Source of the DNA: Patescibacteria group bacterium
GTDB lineage: Bacteria > Patescibacteriota > Patescibacteriia > UBA1558 > GWA2-36-10
Length of the DNA: 64,000 bases
Assembly (NCBI GenBank): GCA_041650755.1
Contig: JBAZKN010000002.1
Coordinates: forward strand, 5,030-69,029
Direction of reading: 5' to 3'
Positions 2,321-62,877 of the stretch are shown here, piece by piece. Under the pieces are notes generated by a model. That model did no database searches, was not told the origin of the DNA, and was given only the letters and a program-made list of their open reading frames with translations. The position numbers and the translations under genes were made by a program. The number at the start of each line of letters is the position of its first letter. Position 1 is the stretch's first letter.

Positions 2321-2848
2321 CTAAAGCGTCTGATTGATCTTTTTGCCTATATTTTTTGGGGTAATAGCAAAAACAAAAAGAATCATTGCGACTGCCAGAA
2401 AAACTAATTCTTTTTCTGTGCCACAGACCTTTGCCCAGCCGCCCAACGGGTCGTCCGTGTTATAGATTATCGTACATTTAAAAACTTCTATTTTCAAGAA
2501 AAATTGTTGCAAGATTAGTGTTAAGATAAGACCAGTAATGGTTTTTATGCCAGTATTCTTAAGACCATGCAGATATTCGCTGAGAGACCGTGATACTTTT
2601 TTACTGGTATTAGATATATTTTTGCCTCGCTGGCCAATCAGATCAGCGATTAAGGTGATAAGGCTAGTCACGATCAAAATAATTCCTAAAATTAAAATAT
2701 ATGTTGCGTTGGATGCTTGAGCGCTATCGCTCATACCAAAAAAATTGGCTACCCACTGGTAATCAATAACATTAATTGCGCCAACAGAACTTAATAAAAA
2801 GAAAAGTGAAAGTAAGATCAAAATTATTTTTCTGGTGATAACACTCAT
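2321..2848 (-). CDS. Hypothetical multi-pass membrane protein
   Basis: 175-aa ORF with AT-rich host-like codon usage and 4-5 hydrophobic segments. Confidence 0.5.
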   Translation of the reverse strand: MSVITRKIILILLSLFFLLSSVGAINVIDYQWVANFFGMSDSAQASNATYILILGIILIVTSLITLIADLIGQRGKNISNTSKKVSRSLSEYLHGLKNTGIKTITGLILTLILQQFFLKIEVFKCTIIYNTDDPLGGWAKVCGTEKELVFLAVAMILFVFAITPKNIGKKINQTL

Positions 2849-3526: not shown

Positions 3527-4480
3527 TTAGGCCAAAGGGTCAATATAAGCCTTTTTTAAATCAGCTGTTGCCTCTTCCAAACCTATTAGTCGGCTATGTT
3601 GGATAATAGCAGCTAGCTGGGCAGCTACCGCCTCCAGTAATATTTGATTGTTGGCGCTATATTCCTGACCGTAGCGTTTATTTTTCAGCACAATAAAACC
3701 AATGGCTTTTTGTGTGAGGCAAATAGGGGCAATGATCATGGTCGACTTAGTTTGTCCTGGCCAAAGTAAATTTTTGCTAGGCCAATCATTTGGTCCCAAA
3801 ATAAGTGTGCGCGGATGGCGAACCAAGTCTTGAAAGATTGGGAAAGCAGCCGCAGGATAATAGGCGCGATCTTTGATGTCTTTAAAATTAAGACTTCGAT
3901 AGACATGGAGTTTGTCGGTGGTTTGGGAATAGGTCATAAAAATAGCTGCTTGGGACGGGATGACGTTTAGAATAATATCCAAGACAAAGCCGGCAATATT
4001 GTTGAGATTTGATTGTCGGCTGATAGCTTGGCTGATGGCGAACAAGGCGGTTAATTTATTATCAGCATGCTCCAAGCGTTGATATAATATGCCAGCTGTA
4101 TTTTTATAGATTTTCTCCGCTATTTTGGGAGCCTGTTTTATGATCTTGGGCCAGTGGCGTTGGGACAGCTCCAAGGTAGTCAAAGCCTTCAGGGCTTTGA
4201 GGCTGTGCCGGTGGTATAAAATATTGTTTAACAGGGAATTTTCTCCAATAAATTCACACTTGTTGAACAAGGCAATGATTTGTTTTTCTGAACCAACTTG
4301 GGCTTCTAGACCGGCTTGGCCGCTAGCGACAATTATCAGGCGATCGGCGGCTTTTTGATCTTGATAAAGATAGACATCAGCCGGATACTTTTTTTCTATC
4401 AGAAAATTGCCCAGCAGAGCTGTCTCTGACTTGGCTAAACCAGCCAACAAAGGAATTTTTTCTAAAGATATTTTAGCCAT
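3527..4480 (-). CDS. cNMP-binding (Crp-like) domain plus GAF domain protein, probably co-transcribed with pilT
   Basis: N-terminal cyclic-nucleotide-binding signature (FNKCEFIGENSLLNN) and a C-terminal GAF-like region. The stop lies 15 bp downstream of pilT's stop on the minus strand... more precisely the gene starts 15 bp after the pilT stop in the direction of transcription. Confidence 0.55.
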   Translation of the reverse strand: MAKISLEKIPLLAGLAKSETALLGNFLIEKKYPADVYLYQDQKAADRLIIVASGQAGLEAQVGSEKQIIALFNKCEFIGENSLLNNILYHRHSLKALKALTTLELSQRHWPKIIKQAPKIAEKIYKNTAGILYQRLEHADNKLTALFAISQAISRQSNLNNIAGFVLDIILNVIPSQAAIFMTYSQTTDKLHVYRSLNFKDIKDRAYYPAAAFPIFQDLVRHPRTLILGPNDWPSKNLLWPGQTKSTMIIAPICLTQKAIGFIVLKNKRYGQEYSANNQILLEAVAAQLAAIIQHSRLIGLEEATADLKKAYIDPLA

Positions 4481-31974: not shown

Positions 31975-32009
31975 TAAAAAAGCCCCGCATTATTTGGTGG
32001 GGCTTTTTA
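31975..32009. terminator. Bidirectional terminator between the surface-protein gene and rpe
   Basis: aaaaaagccccgc attatttggt ggggcttttt. Confidence 0.65.
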
Positions 32010-32643
32010 TTTTACGTAAAGCTTTTCTAATATCTGGGGCAGTCTGCAGATACTTACCTATGACGGCCATATCGGCGCCGGCATTTTTTATGCGCAGAAA
32101 ATTTTTGTCACTGATGCCGCCATCAACGGAGATTTTTTGCCGGGGGAATTTTTTTCTCAATTTTTTTATTTTCAAAATAGCCTTAGCGTGGAAGGCGCGG
32201 CCTTGGGCGCCGGATTTTATGCTCATCAGTTGAATGGTGTCAAAATACTTGGCTATTTTGGCGATTTTTTCTACCGGAGTGGTCAAATTTAGGCAAAGAC
32301 CGGTCTTTATTTTTTTCTTTTTTAGATAATCATTGAGGCAGAGGATGACGGCCAGATTTTTCTTAGCTTCGTAGTGCCAGATTATTTTTTTGACATTAGA
32401 TAATTTTTCCCAGAGATTTATATACTTAGCCACATCTCTGACCATGAGATGTATTTCTAGTTGATGCTGGCGGGTGATTTTTTTGACTGTAGCGGGGCGG
32501 AATTTAGTCTGGCCGCTGACAAATTTGCCATCCATGATGTCTAGTTGGATATAAGAAAAAAAAGGAGCAACTTTGCGCCATTGTCGGTAAAATTCTCTTT
32601 TGTTTTTGGCAAGGATTGCCGGAACAATTTTTATTTGCCTCAT
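31990..32643 (-). CDS. rpe: Ribulose-phosphate 3-epimerase
   Basis: PAILAKN ... LDIMDGKFV ... HLMV ... DGGI motifs. Confidence 0.8.
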   Translation of the reverse strand: MRQIKIVPAILAKNKREFYRQWRKVAPFFSYIQLDIMDGKFVSGQTKFRPATVKKITRQHQLEIHLMVRDVAKYINLWEKLSNVKKIIWHYEAKKNLAVILCLNDYLKKKKIKTGLCLNLTTPVEKIAKIAKYFDTIQLMSIKSGAQGRAFHAKAILKIKKLRKKFPRQKISVDGGISDKNFLRIKNAGADMAVIGKYLQTAPDIRKALRKIKSPTK

Positions 32644-33083
32644 CCGATTTTTTTTATGCGTCGGGCATGCCTTTCTTCTCCGGGAAAATCTGTTTTAAGA
32701 AAAGTCTCGACTAAGTGTACGCCTTGAGTAGTACTTAAGAAGCGGCCGGCCAAACAGAGGACATTGCTGTCGTTGTGCTCGCGTCCGACCATGACAGCGC
32801 TGACCGAGTAGCCTAAGATAGCCCGGACTTTTTTGAAGCGATTGGCGGCAATGCACATGCCGTGCCCGCTGCCGCAGATCAGTATGCCGAAATTTTTTGG
32901 CTGGCGGCTGATGGTCTGGGCAACCTTTTTGGCAAAATCAGGATAATCATCATCTGACGTTAGCGTGTCAGCGCCAAAGTCCACATAATTGATTTTGGTT
33001 TCAGATAAATATTGTTTGATAGCATTTTTCAAGCGCAAGCCAGCATGATCGGCCCCCAGATAAACTTTAAATTCTTTTTCCAT
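32640..33083 (-). CDS. rpiB: Ribose-5-phosphate isomerase B
   Basis: GADHAG and GILICGSGHGMCIAANRF motifs. Start at MEKEFKV (33083). Overlaps the rpe start by 4 nt. Confidence 0.8.
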   Translation of the reverse strand: MEKEFKVYLGADHAGLRLKNAIKQYLSETKINYVDFGADTLTSDDDYPDFAKKVAQTISRQPKNFGILICGSGHGMCIAANRFKKVRAILGYSVSAVMVGREHNDSNVLCLAGRFLSTTQGVHLVETFLKTDFPGEERHARRIKKIG

Positions 33084-33213
33084 AAGAATATTTTTACTTT
33101 TGTTTATATGGTTAAACTTTAGCATACTTTGGATTTTTTTACCATTGACGTAATGGCTGTTTATTGTTATACTTGGCTGTGTTTATTTGAAAAAATGGAC
33201 ATTTTACATATTA

Positions 33214-33250
33214 GCCCCGGTAGTTCAATGGATAGGAACATTAAGATATA
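33214..33250 (+). pseudogene. tRNA 5'-half fragment (acceptor and D arm only)
   Basis: GCCCCGGTAGTTCAATGGATAGGAACATTAAG parallels the 5' half of the adjacent tRNA-Arg(TCT), then diverges. No matching 3' half is found. Confidence 0.45.
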
Positions 33251-33325
33251 AGTGCCTTCCCCCGCAAAATGTATGAGCGAAGCGAATACTATTTTGCGCG
33301 GTCCCGCAACACGAAATTTTTTTAA

Positions 33326-33400
33326 GCCCCTATAGTTCAACGGATAGAACAGCGGCCTTCTAAGCCGTCGATGTAGGTTCGATTCCTACTGGGGGCACCA
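33326..33400 (+). tRNA. tRNA-Arg (anticodon TCT)
   Basis: GCCCCTATAGTTCAACGGATAGAACAGCGGCCTTCTAAGCCGTCGATGTAGGTTCGATTCCTACTGGGGGCACCA. Confidence 0.85.
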
Positions 33401-33514
33401 CCGATAGTTTTTGCGGGACTCCGCCAGTTGGCGGACTCGCAGAGAGAGTAAACCCCTGTGGTAATAGTAGTTATGCACCTTTACATTTTTTACCACAGAT
33501 GTTAATATATCCCC

Positions 33515-33958
33515 ATGACATGGGAATATATAGCAGGTTTTTTTGATGGCGAAGGATCCATAGTTTACAATGGTAGTGGTTTTAGATTAACAATCGCCCA
33601 AACGAACCTTACGGTGTTAGATAGTATAAGTAGGTTTACAAAAATTGGTCAGGTTATAAAGGTCACCAAACGTCAGGTTCACTGGAAAGATAGTTGGGTA
33701 TATTATATAAGCAAACAGGAAGACATTTTATTTTTTGTGAGACATATCCAAAATTTTTCAATAGTTAAAAAACAAAAAATAAATATAGTATTGCCGAGGC
33801 TCATAAAAGCAGTTTCCAATAATAGAGATAGGATTTTAAAGAGACAACTATTGACTAAATCAGCTAAAGCTCTGAGAAAAAATGGTTTAAGTTATAGAGA
33901 AATAGGCAAGAGATTAAATATGGATTTTGGACAAGCGCGTCGTTTGATAAAAAGATAA
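33515..33958 (+). CDS. Free-standing LAGLIDADG homing endonuclease with C-terminal HTH
   Basis: MTWEYIAGFFDGEGSIVYNGSGFRL: single LAGLIDADG motif (IAGFFDGEGS). C-terminal GLSYREIGKRLNMDFGQARRLIKR. 147 aa. No flanking intron or intein context found. Confidence 0.7.
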   Translation: MTWEYIAGFFDGEGSIVYNGSGFRLTIAQTNLTVLDSISRFTKIGQVIKVTKRQVHWKDSWVYYISKQEDILFFVRHIQNFSIVKKQKINIVLPRLIKAVSNNRDRILKRQLLTKSAKALRKNGLSYREIGKRLNMDFGQARRLIKR

Positions 33959-33970
33959 GATTATTTACAT

Positions 33971-34048
33971 GGTGGCAGTAGCTCAGTTGGTTAGAGCATC
34001 GGGTTGTGGTCCCGGCGGTCGTGGGTTCGAGACCCATCTGCCACCCCA
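33971..34048 (+). tRNA. tRNA-His (anticodon GTG) with encoded G-1 and CCA
   Basis: G-GTGGCAGTAGCTCAGTTGGTTAGAGCATCGGGTTGTGGTCCCGGCGGTCGTGGGTTCGAGACCCATCTGCCAC-C-CCA. Confidence 0.85.
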
Positions 34049-34086
34049 TCGAAGATCCTGAGCGAACGTAGTGAGTCGAAGGATCA
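34043..34086 (+). repeat. 44-bp direct repeat, left copy (overlaps the last 6 nt of tRNA-His); attL-like
   Basis: accccatcgaagatcctgagcgaacgtagtgagtcgaaggatca, identical to 35761-35804. Each copy is followed by a similar hairpin plus T-run. Confidence 0.85.
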
Positions 34087-34350
34087 AAAAACACCCAATT
34101 TTCTTTGAGTGTTTTTTGTTCGTTATAATTTGACTAAATATATAATAATTGCTATAGTATCTTGTTGTTTTTCATATATTTCGTAGTCTGCTTTTTGTTT
34201 ATTTATATGAGTAAAAAGCAGGCTAAGAAAACGCTTAGTCTTTGTTCCGTTAAATAATTTTTTGTGTACGAAGGGGGGTGAACCAGACCGTTGTTCTGTC
34301 GGCAATCTCGTGTGCTAGGGTTCTGGATTCATTCAAGGAGGTATGGGAGG

Positions 34351-35613
34351 ATGTCGACCATGCTGCAATCCCAGGTCATCGAAAGGCTTCTGAAGTACGC
34401 GCGGGTCAACACCCGTTCGCTTCAGGCCATGCCGGGCGAGGAGCTCCCTCACCCAAGCAGTCCGGAGCAGGTGGTCTTGATCGACCTGTTGCTCTCCGAG
34501 CTGTCCGACATGGGGGTGCCGTCCAACTGGACCAGGAAGCTCGAAGACGCTTCGTTCCTGATCGAGATCCCCGCGACCGAGGGCCACGAGAACGCCCCGC
34601 ACGTCGTTCTGGCTGCGCACGTGGACACCTACTTCGGCTGTCCCGGCGGGGCCAACCCGATCATCCACGAGTACCAGGGCGGCGACATCGCGCTCCCGAA
34701 CGACAACGTGGTCATCCCGGCCTCGGACCTTGCCGGTCTCGAGGGCAAGGGGATCATCACCGCTGACGGCACCACGCTGCTCGGTGGCGACGACAAGTGC
34801 GGAGTCGCGGCCATCATGACCTTCATCGAGAGCATGCTGGCTCACAATCTGCCGCACGGTCCGCTGACCATCTGGATCTGTACCGACGAGGAGGTCGGCG
34901 AGGTCGGCGTGAAGTTCCTGCCTTCGGGCACGGCGGAGAAGTGGGACTTCTTCTGGACCGTGGACGGGGAGCGTCTCGAAGTCGTGGACATTGGCTGTTT
35001 CTACGGCTCCTCGGTCGACGTCGAGTTCATCGGCAACGATTCCCATCCGGGTGTCTCCGGCCACTCGCTCAAGCCCGCCCACTACGCCGCCTGTCGCTTC
35101 GTGGATCAGCTCGGCCTGGCGCCGACGCCCTGGCGGACCAGCGGCGAGGAGTCGTTCATCTACGTGCCCTCTCTGCCCGCCTGCACGGCCGGCAAGTCGA
35201 CGATCAAGGTCTTCCCGCGTACCTTCCGCCAGGAAGAGATCCCTGAGATGCGGGAGACGATCCGGCTCGTGGCCGAGGAGGCGGCTTCGCACTACGGCGT
35301 CCAGGCCGTGGTCAGTGAGGCCAAGATCCTCTACGTCTCCACCGAGGTCGCGATCGACCAGAACCGCCACCTGTTGCAGCCGGGTCTGGACGCGATCCGG
35401 AAGTTCTGGGTCGAGCCCAAGCTGCATCGCGTGCGCGCTGGCACCGACGGCGCCATGCTGAACATGACGTACCCGAAGATCCCGTCGCCGAACATGGGAG
35501 CCGGGGCCCGCAACTTGCACGGCGTTCGCGAGTTCGTCGTGCGGGAAGAGCTCCAGCTCGTCCCGGAGATCATCTCCGAGATGATCGGAATCTACGCGAC
35601 CATGTCGCGCTGA
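34351..35613 (+). CDS. M20-family peptidase (peptidase T/PepT-like tripeptidase), high-GC cassette H cargo
   Basis: HVDT, GGDDKCGVAAIM, TDEEVGE, GTDGA and NLHGVREF motifs of M20B. GC about 62%. SD AAGGAGG 9 nt before the ATG at 34351. Confidence 0.75.
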   Translation: MSTMLQSQVIERLLKYARVNTRSLQAMPGEELPHPSSPEQVVLIDLLLSELSDMGVPSNWTRKLEDASFLIEIPATEGHENAPHVVLAAHVDTYFGCPGGANPIIHEYQGGDIALPNDNVVIPASDLAGLEGKGIITADGTTLLGGDDKCGVAAIMTFIESMLAHNLPHGPLTIWICTDEEVGEVGVKFLPSGTAEKWDFFWTVDGERLEVVDIGCFYGSSVDVEFIGNDSHPGVSGHSLKPAHYAACRFVDQLGLAPTPWRTSGEESFIYVPSLPACTAGKSTIKVFPRTFRQEEIPEMRETIRLVAEEAASHYGVQAVVSEAKILYVSTEVAIDQNRHLLQPGLDAIRKFWVEPKLHRVRAGTDGAMLNMTYPKIPSPNMGAGARNLHGVREFVVREELQLVPEIISEMIGIYATMSR

Positions 35614-35760
35614 TCCGCCATCGTGAGAGGTTCGCAACCCAAACTGCCGTCTCAACAATCCTTGCAGGTGAGAGATGGCGTTTTCATTTATTTAAAATTG
35701 TAGATAGGGTATATGATAAGTATTTGAAATTAGTATAGTCCCGATACGTTTTACGACGCG

Positions 35761-35804
35761 ACCCCATCGAAGATCCTGAGCGAACGTAGTGAGTCGAAGG
35801 ATCA
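35761..35804 (+). repeat. 44-bp direct repeat, right copy; attR-like
   Basis: Perfect match to 34043-34086. Followed by tcaccc..gggtgg ttttttg terminator-like hairpin. Confidence 0.85.
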
Positions 35805-35868
35805 CAAAATCACCCTGAGCGTAGTCGAATGGGTGGTTTTTTGATATAATGGAGAAAATAAATTCACC

Positions 35869-36105
35869 ATGAAATACTTTGTGATAATTGCTATAAGTAT
35901 GATTTGGGCTGGCGTTATTGCCTTTTATTTTATAATGAAGAAATATTCAACTAAAGAGGAATTGGCTAATTGGAAATATGTGCCTATTTTAAATCTTTGG
36001 TCTACAAACTGGGGTTTTGTTAAAAGGTATTGGAAAACTTTTATTATTGCATGGTTCATAGTATTGATAGTTGCGTTATGGTGGTCATTAACTAAAAATT
36101 CATAA
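35869..36105 (+). CDS. Small membrane protein (78 aa)
   Basis: Two hydrophobic helices. AT-rich host-like codons. Confidence 0.45.
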   Translation: MKYFVIIAISMIWAGVIAFYFIMKKYSTKEELANWKYVPILNLWSTNWGFVKRYWKTFIIAWFIVLIVALWWSLTKNS

Positions 36106-60651: not shown

Positions 60652-62877
60652 ATGTCGGTACGACAATTTAAGACCGAGGTAGCCGGAAAAGAGCTTACAG
60701 TAGAGATCGGTAAGCTGGCTCAACAAGCTCATGGCTCTTGCACTGTCATTTATGGTGAGACAGTAGTTTTAGCAACTGCTGTGACTAGCTCAACCCAGCG
60801 CGAGGGCATAGATTATTTCCCTTTGCTGGTTGATTATGAAGAAAGGCTTTATGCTGCCGGTAAAATAAAGGGTTCGCGCTTTATCAAGCGTGAAGGCCGG
60901 GCTACCGATGAAGCAATTCTCACCTCTCGTTTGATTGATCGGTCCATCAGGCCATTGTTTAAAGAATCAGAACGGAATGACGTGCAGGTAGTGGTGACAG
61001 TTTTATCTTATGACGGCATCAATGAGCCTGATTTTCCCAGCCTGATAGCCACTTCTATAGCCTTGGGCATTTCACCGATTGTCTGGGGTGGGCCACTGGC
61101 CGGCATTAAGCTTGGTAAAATCGGCGAGGAGTGGGTAATAAACCCCAGCGTCGAGGCTAAACAAAAAAGCGAGTTTGATTTACTGGTTGCCGGCACAGCT
61201 GATCAAGTGGTAATGATTGAAGCCGGAGCCAAACAAGTCCCAGAAGACACCATGATAGCTGCTATTGAATTTGCCGGTAAGCATATTCAGCGTCTGATGC
61301 CCTTTATTGAGGGCGTTATTCGGGATGCTGGCTTACCCAAAATTCAGCCCAAGGTAGATGGAGATGCCGAAGCAGCTCAGCAGATGATTCATGATAAGGT
61401 TTTGGCATTTTTGCAAAGCAAAGATTTATTAGCTTGTTTTCAGCCCGATAAATCAAAGATGAAAACAGCCATTGAGGACATTAAAGCTGAGCTTGATCAG
61501 GTATTAAAAGTTGATAATGAAGTTTCTAAAGATGCTCGAGCCATGGGGGTAGCCATGCTCGATTCTATGTTAGAGAAATCTTTCAAATCTTTGGTTTTGG
61601 ATAAAAAACAGCGTCCAGATGGCCGCGCTTTTGATGAAATCAGACCACTATCTGCTGAAGTGGGGATTTTGCCCCGCACTCATGGCAGTGGTTTATTTGC
61701 TAGGGGCGAAACCCAGGTTTTGTCTATAGTGACTTTGGGTGCGCCGGGAGATCAGCAGCTGCTTGATTCAATGGAAGAATCTGGTTCCAAGCGCTATATG
61801 CATCATTATAATTTTCCGGGGTTTTCTACGGGTGAAGTAAAGCCTTTGCGCGGTCCGGGTCGTCGGGAGATCGGCCACGGCGCCTTAGCTGAAAAAGCCC
61901 TAGTGCCAGTTTTGCCGGATGAGGAGAGCTTTCCCTATACTATCCGGGTTGTTTCTGAAGTATTGAGCTCAAACGGTTCATCTTCACAAGCCTCTATCTG
62001 TGGTTCCACCTTATCCTTGATGGACGCTGGTGTGCCAATTATTGCGCCGGTAGCTGGTATTGCCATGGGTTTGGTAGTTGATGATAATGACCCCAAAAGA
62101 TATGAGATTCTGACAGATATCCAGGGCATTGAAGATCATTCTGGCCATATGGATTTTAAAGTAGCGGGCACCGAAGCTGGCATTACCGCCATTCAATTGG
62201 ATATAAAATTGGGCGGCATTAGCTATCAGGTTGTCAAAGAGACCATTCAGCGGGCCCGTGAAGCTAGAATGAAGGTTTTGTCGGTCATGAAGCAGGCAAT
62301 TGCCGCTCCGAGAGCGGAACTTTCTCCTTATGCGCCGCGGATTATTACTTTGCGCATTGATCCGGATAAAATTCGGGAAGTTATTGGTACTGGTGGTAAA
62401 ATCATCAATGAAATTATTGATAAATGTAATGTCCAGATCGACATTGAGCAGGATGGTTTGGTATTAATTACTTCTACCGACCAAGTTGGCGCTCAAAAGG
62501 CCAAGCAGTGGATAGAAAACATTGTCAAAGATATTACGGTGGGTGAAATTTATGAAGGTAAAGTCACCCAAATAATCAAAGACAAAAATAATGGCAATGA
62601 AATAGGCGCTATTGTAGAATTGTTGCCAGGTAAAGATGGTATGGTTCATATTTCCCAAATTTCTCACTCAAGAATTGCCAAGATCACTGACGTGGTAAAT
62701 ATTGGCGACACAGTCAGAGTCAAGGTAATGGATGTGGATACTGCCAATAATCGCATTAGTTTATCCATGAAAGAGCTTGTGCCCCGTCCAGCCGGCTTGC
62801 CGGAGCATGACACCAGAGATTTTCGGCCTCGTCGTCCCGGCGGTCCAGCCAAAAAGCCATTTTTTAAGCGCTCATAA
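60652..62877 (+). CDS. pnp: Polynucleotide phosphorylase
   Basis: Two RNase PH domains, KH and S1 domains (GEIYEGKVTQIIK...), and a basic C-terminal tail. 741 aa. Classical rpsO-pnp synteny. Confidence 0.9.
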   Translation: MSVRQFKTEVAGKELTVEIGKLAQQAHGSCTVIYGETVVLATAVTSSTQREGIDYFPLLVDYEERLYAAGKIKGSRFIKREGRATDEAILTSRLIDRSIRPLFKESERNDVQVVVTVLSYDGINEPDFPSLIATSIALGISPIVWGGPLAGIKLGKIGEEWVINPSVEAKQKSEFDLLVAGTADQVVMIEAGAKQVPEDTMIAAIEFAGKHIQRLMPFIEGVIRDAGLPKIQPKVDGDAEAAQQMIHDKVLAFLQSKDLLACFQPDKSKMKTAIEDIKAELDQVLKVDNEVSKDARAMGVAMLDSMLEKSFKSLVLDKKQRPDGRAFDEIRPLSAEVGILPRTHGSGLFARGETQVLSIVTLGAPGDQQLLDSMEESGSKRYMHHYNFPGFSTGEVKPLRGPGRREIGHGALAEKALVPVLPDEESFPYTIRVVSEVLSSNGSSSQASICGSTLSLMDAGVPIIAPVAGIAMGLVVDDNDPKRYEILTDIQGIEDHSGHMDFKVAGTEAGITAIQLDIKLGGISYQVVKETIQRAREARMKVLSVMKQAIAAPRAELSPYAPRIITLRIDPDKIREVIGTGGKIINEIIDKCNVQIDIEQDGLVLITSTDQVGAQKAKQWIENIVKDITVGEIYEGKVTQIIKDKNNGNEIGAIVELLPGKDGMVHISQISHSRIAKITDVVNIGDTVRVKVMDVDTANNRISLSMKELVPRPAGLPEHDTRDFRPRRPGGPAKKPFFKRS

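Follow-up and report, generated by a model that had tools for sequence, protein, structure and literature searches.

Bacterial homing endonucleases are known almost exclusively from introns, inteins and phages. What, then, does a LAGLIDADG gene do on its own between two tRNA genes of a bacterium? The question is raised by a stretch of 64,000 nt from a Patescibacteria group bacterium (GenBank assembly GCA_041650755.1, contig JBAZKN010000002.1, positions 5,030 to 69,029 of the forward strand; the whole stretch is hereafter called the window), in which an open reading frame (ORF) of 147 aa runs from 33515 to 33958 on the forward strand. Its coordinates and length were as given in the original prediction, which had been made from the sequence of the window, and ARAGORN likewise placed the ORF between tRNA-Arg(TCT) at 33326-33400 and tRNA-His(GTG) at 33972-34048.

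The ORF is quite probably an active-looking, single-domain LAGLIDADG endonuclease gene and the core of a free-standing homing cassette of ~0.5 kb that is fixed just upstream of the tRNA-His gene of Patescibacteria. I regard the cassette as a selfish mobile element specialised on the tRNA-His locus, with cleavage, its exact target and the cause of self-immunity as matters of inference. The evidence that carries this reading is the nearly invariant linkage to tRNA-His across the phylum, a point absent from the original prediction, together with occupied and empty alleles in close relatives and a conserved nuclease active site.

The nuclease family and its link to tRNA-His

A scan of one genome per species (185,579 species representatives) returned 54 loci, labelled L001 onward, of which 37 were clear family members; the gene family occurs in about 37 of the 185,579 representatives. 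The tRNA-His(GTG) gene lay directly downstream and on the same strand as the ORF in 35 of the 37 loci (ARAGORN), and a 36th, L024, had a tRNA-His-like sequence with an odd T loop after the ORF. Between stop codon and tRNA-His the median gap was 6 nt, with extremes of -23 and +27 (n=33). The upstream neighbour varied: it was mostly tRNA-Arg(TCT), and elsewhere a tRNA for Phe, Lys, Pro or Arg(CCG), or no tRNA at all. Since tRNA-His is constant and the upstream neighbour is not, the conserved partner of the nuclease gene is tRNA-His rather than tRNA-Arg. The features of the locus are as follows.

33515..33958, forward strand: LAGLIDADG endonuclease gene with helix-turn-helix (HTH), 147 aa; residues 3-78 are the core, 86-122 a long helix and 127-146 the HTH
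33972..34048, forward strand: tRNA-His(GTG) with encoded G-1 and CCA, 13 nt past the stop codon; conserved partner of the ORF (ARAGORN, Rfam)
33480..33508, forward strand: predicted sigma-70-type promoter TTTACA-17-TAATAT; TG precedes its -10 box, and its end lies 6 nt short of the ATG (promoter scan)
33456..33464, forward strand: left arm of an operator-like inverted repeat, CTGTGGTAA, at a fixed place in relatives
33490..33498, forward strand: right arm of the inverted repeat, TTACCACAG, within the promoter spacer, at a fixed place in relatives
33326..33400, forward strand: tRNA-Arg(TCT), the usual, non-obligatory upstream neighbour (ARAGORN; Rfam 72 bits)
33214..33250, forward strand: orphan 5' half of a disrupted second tRNA-Arg(TCT), which aligns with the 5' half of the L001/L064 tRNA-Arg allele and lies outside the cassette proper
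33198..34050, forward strand: horizontally exchanged module of orphan tRNA-Arg half, tRNA-Arg, operator/promoter, ORF and tRNA-His, as delimited by identity with L055

A protein search gathered 192 clusters, nearly all of 146-157 aa and 47-94% identical, and every cluster with an organism label came from Patescibacteria or from an unclassified 'bacterium'. In a full HMM search, 42 of 1.84 billion representatives were retrieved at E<=1e-30. No account of a LAGLIDADG gene with a link to tRNA-His came up in searches of the literature. A phage origin was rejected because tblastn against 50,697 phage records gave zero matches.

Five ORFs (L005, L007, L008, L029 and L030) extend into tRNA-His and end 10-23 nt inside it. 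In L005, L007 and L029 the nuclease ORF terminates at the TAG of the tRNA D loop, with a C-terminus ending in SSIG. Such overlapping loci have no stop codon ahead of the tRNA, and a cut of their transcript by RNase P would delete the stop codon. Additional nucleases were considered for the ORFs between the upstream tRNAs of L007, L008 and L009, which turned out to be one AdoMet decarboxylase and two ORFs without a Pfam match.

Some tRNA-His genes carried unusual T loops in place of TTCGAAT. Those of type B (L013, L022, L031, L032 and L071) had TGCAAAT or TGCAAGT, with G at position 55, while L024 had GGCAGAA and L025 had TCCGATT. The unusual type-B loop is native to its lineage and not caused by the cassette, since the cassette-free L071 carries it. 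A distant relative with the same LAGLIDADG and HTH architecture (P0311, 160 aa, L067 1021-1657) starts 77 nt after tRNA-Asp(GTC), and a wider superfamily may include members linked to other tRNAs. Apart from this one adjoining tRNA-Asp, the distant relatives of the same architecture lay on contigs too short to judge tRNA linkage.

Fold and active site of the protein

The ORF contains, as predicted, one LAGLIDADG motif, IAGFFDGEGS, and this was the sole such motif across the 64-kb window. Pfam LAGLIDADG_3 matched the protein with 28 bits against a cut-off of 22.5, while HTH families (HTH_23 and sigma-70 region 4) matched weakly at residues 119-147. An AlphaFold2 model with 30 homologues as input reached a pLDDT of 93. 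The core, residues 3-78, was modelled as alpha-beta-beta-alpha-beta-beta-alpha, followed by a 37-residue helix (86-122) and two short helices (127-146). The C-terminal HTH of the original prediction was thereby found in the model as helices 127-133 and 138-146 after the long helix, and the homodimer type it had proposed agrees with a single domain of I-CreI-like fold.

Foldseek against the PDB gave I-CreI, I-Vdi141I, I-CvuI and I-MsoI as the top matches, each with probability 1.0. A family profile run against PDB sequences likewise led to I-Vdi141I (E=7e-7), I-MsoI, I-PanMI and I-CreI (E=2.5e-4); structures of WhiA were not among the matches at E<=0.01.

The motif IAGFFDGEG and residues E13, Q29 and K85 were invariant in 30 family sequences. 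In the sequence alignment, E13 corresponds to D20 of I-CreI and K85 to K98. Q29 was not paired in that alignment, and I assign it to Q47 of I-CreI by its position in the secondary structure: in the model it ends strand 2, as Q47 does in I-CreI. Homodimers of the I-CreI type cut a long pseudo-palindromic site and leave 4-nt 3' overhangs. The single domain and a palindromic GTGG-N31-CCAC upstream of the ORF lend indirect support to the idea that the present protein may cut a site of this kind as a homodimer.

Composition set the gene apart from its surroundings. The ORF had been described as AT-rich like the backbone, which did not hold: its GC content was 32% (26% at third codon positions) against 40-44% in its neighbours and 43% in the window, and the ORF is therefore compositionally foreign.

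Occupied and empty alleles

Relatives of the locus were found via RpiB and the shared gene order large protein, rpe, rpiB, tRNA-Arg, tRNA-His, and a metagenome scan with the cassette-linked tRNA-His allele added two further loci. Two independent pairs of occupied and empty alleles were obtained in close relatives, whose neighbouring proteins were 91-97% identical.

In pair 1, L069 was without the ORF, while L055 and the window carried it. The flanks of L069 and L055, including a split tRNA-Arg, were ~95% identical and their tRNA-His genes were identical. The empty site reads CACCAGAAAATTTTGTG-TTA-TAATTATTTACGTG-GTGGCAG and the occupied site CACCAGAAAATTTTGTG[GTAATAG ... about 500 nt ... AAAAAAA]TAATTATTTACATG-GTGGCAG, which amounts to a clean insertion of ~500 bp in the spacer between tRNA-Arg and tRNA-His with no att-type repeat at the junctions. 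RpiB of L055 was 97% identical to that of L069 and 96% identical to that of L062, both of which are empty; L060 and L064 were likewise empty. The 124-nt spacer of L062 was considered as a former cassette that had lost its ORF, and was found to be a decayed tRNA-Arg 3' half followed by the empty site.

In pair 2, the empty L071 was compared with L009, where the IGPS-like neighbour proteins were 91% identical. L071 has tRNA-Phe and then an intact native tRNA-His of type B. In L009 and L016 the same type-B gene is reduced to its 5' half, which breaks off after position 39 and continues into the left repeat arm; the ORF and a complete tRNA-His of type A come next. The right junction lay within a type-A 3' fragment that is already present in L071.

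At least 6 loci had orphan 5' halves of tRNA-His whose anticodon loop runs in register into the left arm, and those of L004, L007, L009, L011, L016 and L017 exceeded shuffled controls (p<=0.005). The test was anchored on the left repeat arm and replaced a plain local alignment, which neighbouring tRNAs had confounded. L017 carried two such halves in series upstream of one cassette (~3843-3940), which suggests repeated invasions of one locus. A further idea, that the type-A tRNA-His is immune and moves solely together with the cassette, was rejected since the identical allele was cassette-free in L062, L069 and L070.

The module has recently been transferred horizontally. Between window and L055, the module at 33198-34050 was 90-98% identical in nucleotides while the flanking rpe and rpiB were 60-70% identical, giving a mosaic with sharp edges; the nuclease gene had a dS of 0.28, and rpiB was saturated (pS 0.79). 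The nuclease gene is under purifying selection, with an omega (dN/dS) of 0.05-0.10. Decayed copies also occurred, one frameshifted (L033) and one with a deletion and a frameshift (L036). The selfish behaviour that the original prediction had considered was borne out by the occupied and empty alleles and by horizontal transfer, while its other option, domestication, did not hold host-wide: the gene is present or absent between genomes with RpiB 96-97% identical.

The same spacer has a further occupant. In L065 a 99-aa GIY-YIG ORF (2402-2701, reverse strand; Pfam E=6e-16) lies between tRNA-Arg and tRNA-His with no LAGLIDADG gene, and a second nuclease family therefore uses the same site.

An operator-like repeat over the nuclease promoter

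The nuclease gene stood on its own, as the original prediction had it, with its own start codon and predicted promoter; no intein context was found for the ORF and no host protein frame around it. Ahead of the ATG, by ~60 and ~25 nt, lay the two arms of the inverted repeat (consensus tTGTGGtTA...tAaCCACA), spaced by 29-33 nt and mostly by 31 nt. GTGG-N29-33-CCAC was found at this place in 26 of 37 loci and a few others had variant arms, which makes about 26-30 of 37 overall. Within the window, TGTGG-N29-33-CCACA occurred once (N31, 33457-33497) where 0.21 occurrences were expected. The -35 box lay between the arms and the right arm lay in the promoter spacer. Arms and HTH also varied in step in the clade L017/L018/L027, where GGTGAC/GTCACC goes with IDHGY as opposed to GTGG/CCAC with ID[WF]GY, a point in favour of an operator.

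At least 9 of 12 promoter positions were matched in 20 of 36 loci, with the -10 box mostly 5-8 nt and in a few cases up to 11 nt from the ATG, and a motif resembling a Shine-Dalgarno (SD) sequence was seen in just 1 of 36 loci. Because the -10 box is so close to the ATG and SD motifs are so scarce, the nuclease mRNA is probably leaderless. The gene may also be autoregulated, judging by the position of the repeat. The arm centres are 35 bp apart and the 37-residue helix, at ~55 Å, would span ~16 bp; from these two values, a dimer could set one HTH on each arm with the core above the -35 box.

A mimicry of the T arm or 5' end of tRNA-His by the operator centre was considered and rejected, as the centre is the -35 box and gave no convincing match. 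The type-A tRNA-His itself holds GTGG-N31-CCAC, which runs between the anticodon and the acceptor stem's 3' strand (window 34005-34043; L001 4489-4527; L055 3489-3527). This copy, with the motif and spacing of the operator, may serve as a further binding site or be coincidental.

A proposed route of invasion

In the route proposed here, the dimer would bind the inverted repeat, each of its two HTHs sitting ~17.5 bp from the dyad on its own side, and would repress its own leaderless promoter, as in I-TevI. In a cassette-free genome, one HTH would anchor on TGTG(G), which lies a little upstream of tRNA-His or else within its anticodon loop, TTGTGG. The core would cut ~17 bp downstream of this anchor, at the tRNA-His gene's 5' end or in its T arm. 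The left junction lay at TGTG(G) in both allele pairs: in pair 1 within a TGTGTTATAAT motif, 9-10 nt before G-1 of tRNA-His, and in pair 2 in the anticodon loop CTGTGGC. Anchoring of the left-arm type puts the dyad 17.5 bp downstream, at G-1 of tRNA-His in L069 and at position -2 in L062 and L070, and the same geometry puts it on T54 of the T loop in L071.

Repair of the break from a cassette-bearing donor would copy the cassette in, the tRNA genes serving as homology arms. Pairing with tRNA-His sequence would resolve the right end, and flank homology or TGTG(G) microhomology the left. Sometimes the donor allele would replace the native tRNA-His and leave an orphan 5' half. Under such a scheme either form of occupied allele would arise, the one with an orphan half and an exchanged tRNA-His type among them. 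From then on, the tRNA-His would be co-transcribed with the nuclease mRNA. As a gap of ~6 nt between ORF and tRNA leaves no space for a separate promoter, the tRNA-His most likely shares a transcript with the ORF or is reached by read-through from the tRNA-operon promoter at 33145-33173.

Several points weigh against a homing cassette that acts in this way. The putative cleavage target is taken from the junctions and the geometry alone. The route does not explain self-immunity, as the cassette-linked tRNA-His equals the cassette-free allele of L062 and L069 and retains GTGG-N31-CCAC, and in the clade of the window the 13 nt ahead of tRNA-His are unaltered by the insertion. An anchor apart from the cut site could account for immunity in pair 1, while the anticodon-anchored site persists in every genome and would have to be a poor substrate. 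I read TGTGTTATAAT at the empty site as an extended -10 box, yet the scan tool called no promoter there, because no -35 box is present. The covariation of HTH and repeat arms stems from one or two evolutionary events only. The family protein tree mixes sequences of the two best-labelled classes and so suggests transfer between classes, of which a star-like tree is no proof. Finally, strong purifying selection and a conserved operator would suit a regulator too.

A bolder version of the homing cassette is possible, though I hold it only tentatively. The family would then be a new class of meganuclease with extended reach, in which two HTH 'outriggers' on long helices read TGTG(G) at a distance of ~17 bp from the cut, with this motif located just upstream of tRNA-His or in its anticodon loop, and the footprint would be ~45 bp. 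As a drive for tRNA-His alleles, the cassette would break the resident gene, install itself with the donor tRNA-His and take over transcription of an essential tRNA, and an ORF-less split tRNA-Arg nearby would be its non-autonomous relative.

Alternative explanations

The alternative that survives best, though it is unlikely, is a domesticated LAGLIDADG-HTH protein that binds DNA without cutting it, resembles half of WhiA and serves as transcription factor for an operon of itself and tRNA-His. The C-terminal HTH and the operator-like repeat over the gene's own promoter would fit this role, as would an omega of 0.05-0.10 and the constant pairing with tRNA-His; in addition, one homologue was named WhiA by JGI and weak Pfam matches to WhiA-LAGLIDADG were seen. 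WhiA, however, has lost the LAGLIDADG catalytic residues, while the equivalents E13, Q29 and K85 are invariant here. The Pfam WhiA domain scored 19.7 bits, under its cut-off of 23.2, and the PDB search brought up no WhiA structure at E<=0.01. The gene is also horizontally transferred, is missing from genomes with RpiB 96-97% identical and occurs in only ~37 of 185,579 species representatives.

Far less probable is a maturase-like factor that acts at the RNA level and aids processing or stability of the co-transcribed pre-tRNA-His. Some LAGLIDADG proteins do work as maturases, and ORF and tRNA are always adjacent and overlap in 5 loci. The tRNA-His is nevertheless ordinary, with G-1 and CCA encoded, cassette-free relatives have the identical tRNA, and normal maturation of tRNA-His in cassette-free sister genomes argues against a need for such a factor. 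The nuclease residues are conserved, and the inverted DNA repeat and the HTH indicate binding to DNA.

The 3' side of tRNA-His bears on a third alternative. In the window, 52-nt direct repeats (34040-34091 and 35758-35809, 96% identical) start with the last 9 nt of tRNA-His and bound an islet of 65% GC with an M20-family peptidase at 34351-35613, which looks like an integration at the tRNA-His 3' end. In cassette-free relatives, ORFs of 531-533 aa abut or overlap this end (L069 7852-9453, L065 698-2296 and L062 882-2477); Pfam identifies the L069 and L065 proteins as large serine recombinases and has no match on record for that of L062. Each relative has different DNA downstream of tRNA-His, L055 and L056 being one example. 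The islet's own repeats and recombinases at the tRNA-His 3' end would account for the islet without the breaks by the nuclease that, in the original prediction, could promote local cassette acquisition. In the window, tRNA-His is followed at 34049-34125 by a hairpin, GATCCTGAGCGAACGTAGTGAGTCGAAGGATC, and then by a second hairpin with a T run, and similar GAGCGAAGCGAA hairpins flank a tRNA-Arg insert at 33270-33300.

It would be conceivable from these recombinase ORFs and from direct repeats that start in the tRNA 3' end that the nuclease ORF is a passenger of a recombinase-driven island integrating at tRNA-His. I consider this highly improbable: ORF and islands lie on opposite sides of the tRNA (5' and 3', respectively), the ORF is missing from the recombinase loci L062, L065 and L069 and present, with no recombinase, in the window and L001, and the insertion is just ~500 bp with no att-type repeat.

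The least probable of all is a remnant of an intron- or intein-encoded homing endonuclease, such as a group I intron, now decayed, of a tRNA or rRNA gene, which draws on the tRNA half-fragments nearby and on insertions in the rRNA genes of the candidate phyla radiation (CPR) that encode single-domain LAGLIDADG enzymes (PMC11270868), and which is met by unmatched intron models and no rRNA in the window, by empty alleles that reveal an intergenic insertion with its own promoter, by a complete tRNA-His always following the ORF, and by a half-fragment that is tRNA-Arg and brackets a complete tRNA-Arg, not the ORF.

The covariance check proposed in the original prediction found no group I or group II intron at 32000-36000 even at E<=10 (Rfam), and in the whole window no intron or rRNA passed the Rfam gathering thresholds, with tRNAs as the only matches. 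The suggested decay of an intron is also at odds with the empty alleles, which show either a clean insertion of ~500 bp into a spacer or a tRNA-His truncated and replaced. The tRNA 5'-half fragment at 33214-33250 is real as predicted; a split tRNA spanning the ORF, which had been raised along with it, was rejected, as the fragment belongs to a second tRNA-Arg(TCT) broken by an insert of ~215 nt.

This tRNA-Arg(TCT) is split near the anticodon arm in the window (33214-33460), in L055 (2560-2935) and in L069 (9443-9780, reverse strand). The insert has no ORF and consists of a different, complete tRNA-Arg(TCT) bracketed by hairpins and by an inverted repeat, GGTCCCGCAA / TTGCGGGA. L055 and L069 keep the matching 3' half beyond the intact tRNA-Arg, while the window keeps the 5' half only. 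The insert looks like an ORF-less counterpart of the tRNA-His cassette. A hairpin motif that the original prediction saw shared with another tRNA locus did not stand up: the match at 61845 lies inside a coding sequence, which I read as PNPase-like without a family search, and the number of matches was at chance level.

Significance and comparison with known systems

The enzyme class as such is known; what is new is a free-standing LAGLIDADG family of cellular genomes that is bound to one tRNA gene across a phylum. The link between mobile nucleases and stable-RNA genes in Patescibacteria is widened from rRNA to tRNA, and the homing cassette would account for the orphan tRNA halves of these reduced genomes and for the way their tRNA alleles turn over. 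Its natural empty and occupied alleles are directly testable substrates, and natural modules of a LAGLIDADG core and an HTH could interest engineers of meganucleases with longer recognition sites.

The protein resembles I-CreI, I-MsoI and I-Vdi141I in core fold, motif, size and the acidic, Gln and Lys catalytic equivalents. Those enzymes reside within group I or archaeal rRNA introns and recognise ~22 bp, whereas the present nuclease is free-standing and linked to a tRNA, with its own predicted promoter and an added 37-residue helix and HTH. Single-domain LAGLIDADG enzymes such as I-ShaI have been described from insertions in the genes for 16S and 23S rRNA of bacteria from the CPR, in a paper that makes no mention of tRNA genes or an HTH (PMC11270868). 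The two groups share the phylum, the single-domain homodimer type, mobility and stable-RNA genes as targets, and differ in that the I-ShaI-type enzymes sit in rRNA insertions while this family is intergenic and tRNA-associated.

WhiA also has a LAGLIDADG fold followed by a C-terminal HTH and probably, like the present protein, binds its own promoter. WhiA is, however, a conserved core gene with two degenerate, non-catalytic domains, whereas here a single domain has kept its catalytic residues in a gene that is sporadic and mobile. I-TevI shares the order of catalytic domain, spacer and HTH, and an operator over its own promoter that has a motif in common with the presumed target; it is an intron-encoded GIY-YIG monomer, and repression in the present case is proposed from sequence alone.

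Integrases that insert into tRNA genes, at sublocations in the anticodon loop or the T loop, offer a parallel in the junctions at the anticodon loop and in an incoming element that rebuilds a functional tRNA. The present cassette is their mirror image, as it displaces the 5' part, brings a promoter and has no recombinase gene. The nearest parallel in behaviour is the 'intronless homing' of T4 SegB, where a nuclease gene lies amid conserved genes (for SegB, in a tRNA cluster), is present or absent between relatives and is transferred along with flanking markers. As with nucleases of the T4 Seg/Mob type, the gene described here is intergenic and absent from the collinear relatives L069, L064, L060 and L071. 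Enzymes of that type cut the cassette-free allele close to the insertion point and spare their own, and for the present nuclease the TGTG(G) junctions would mark the putative target. SegB is a GIY-YIG enzyme of a phage, while the family reported here is LAGLIDADG, resides in cellular genomes and keeps to one tRNA gene throughout a phylum.

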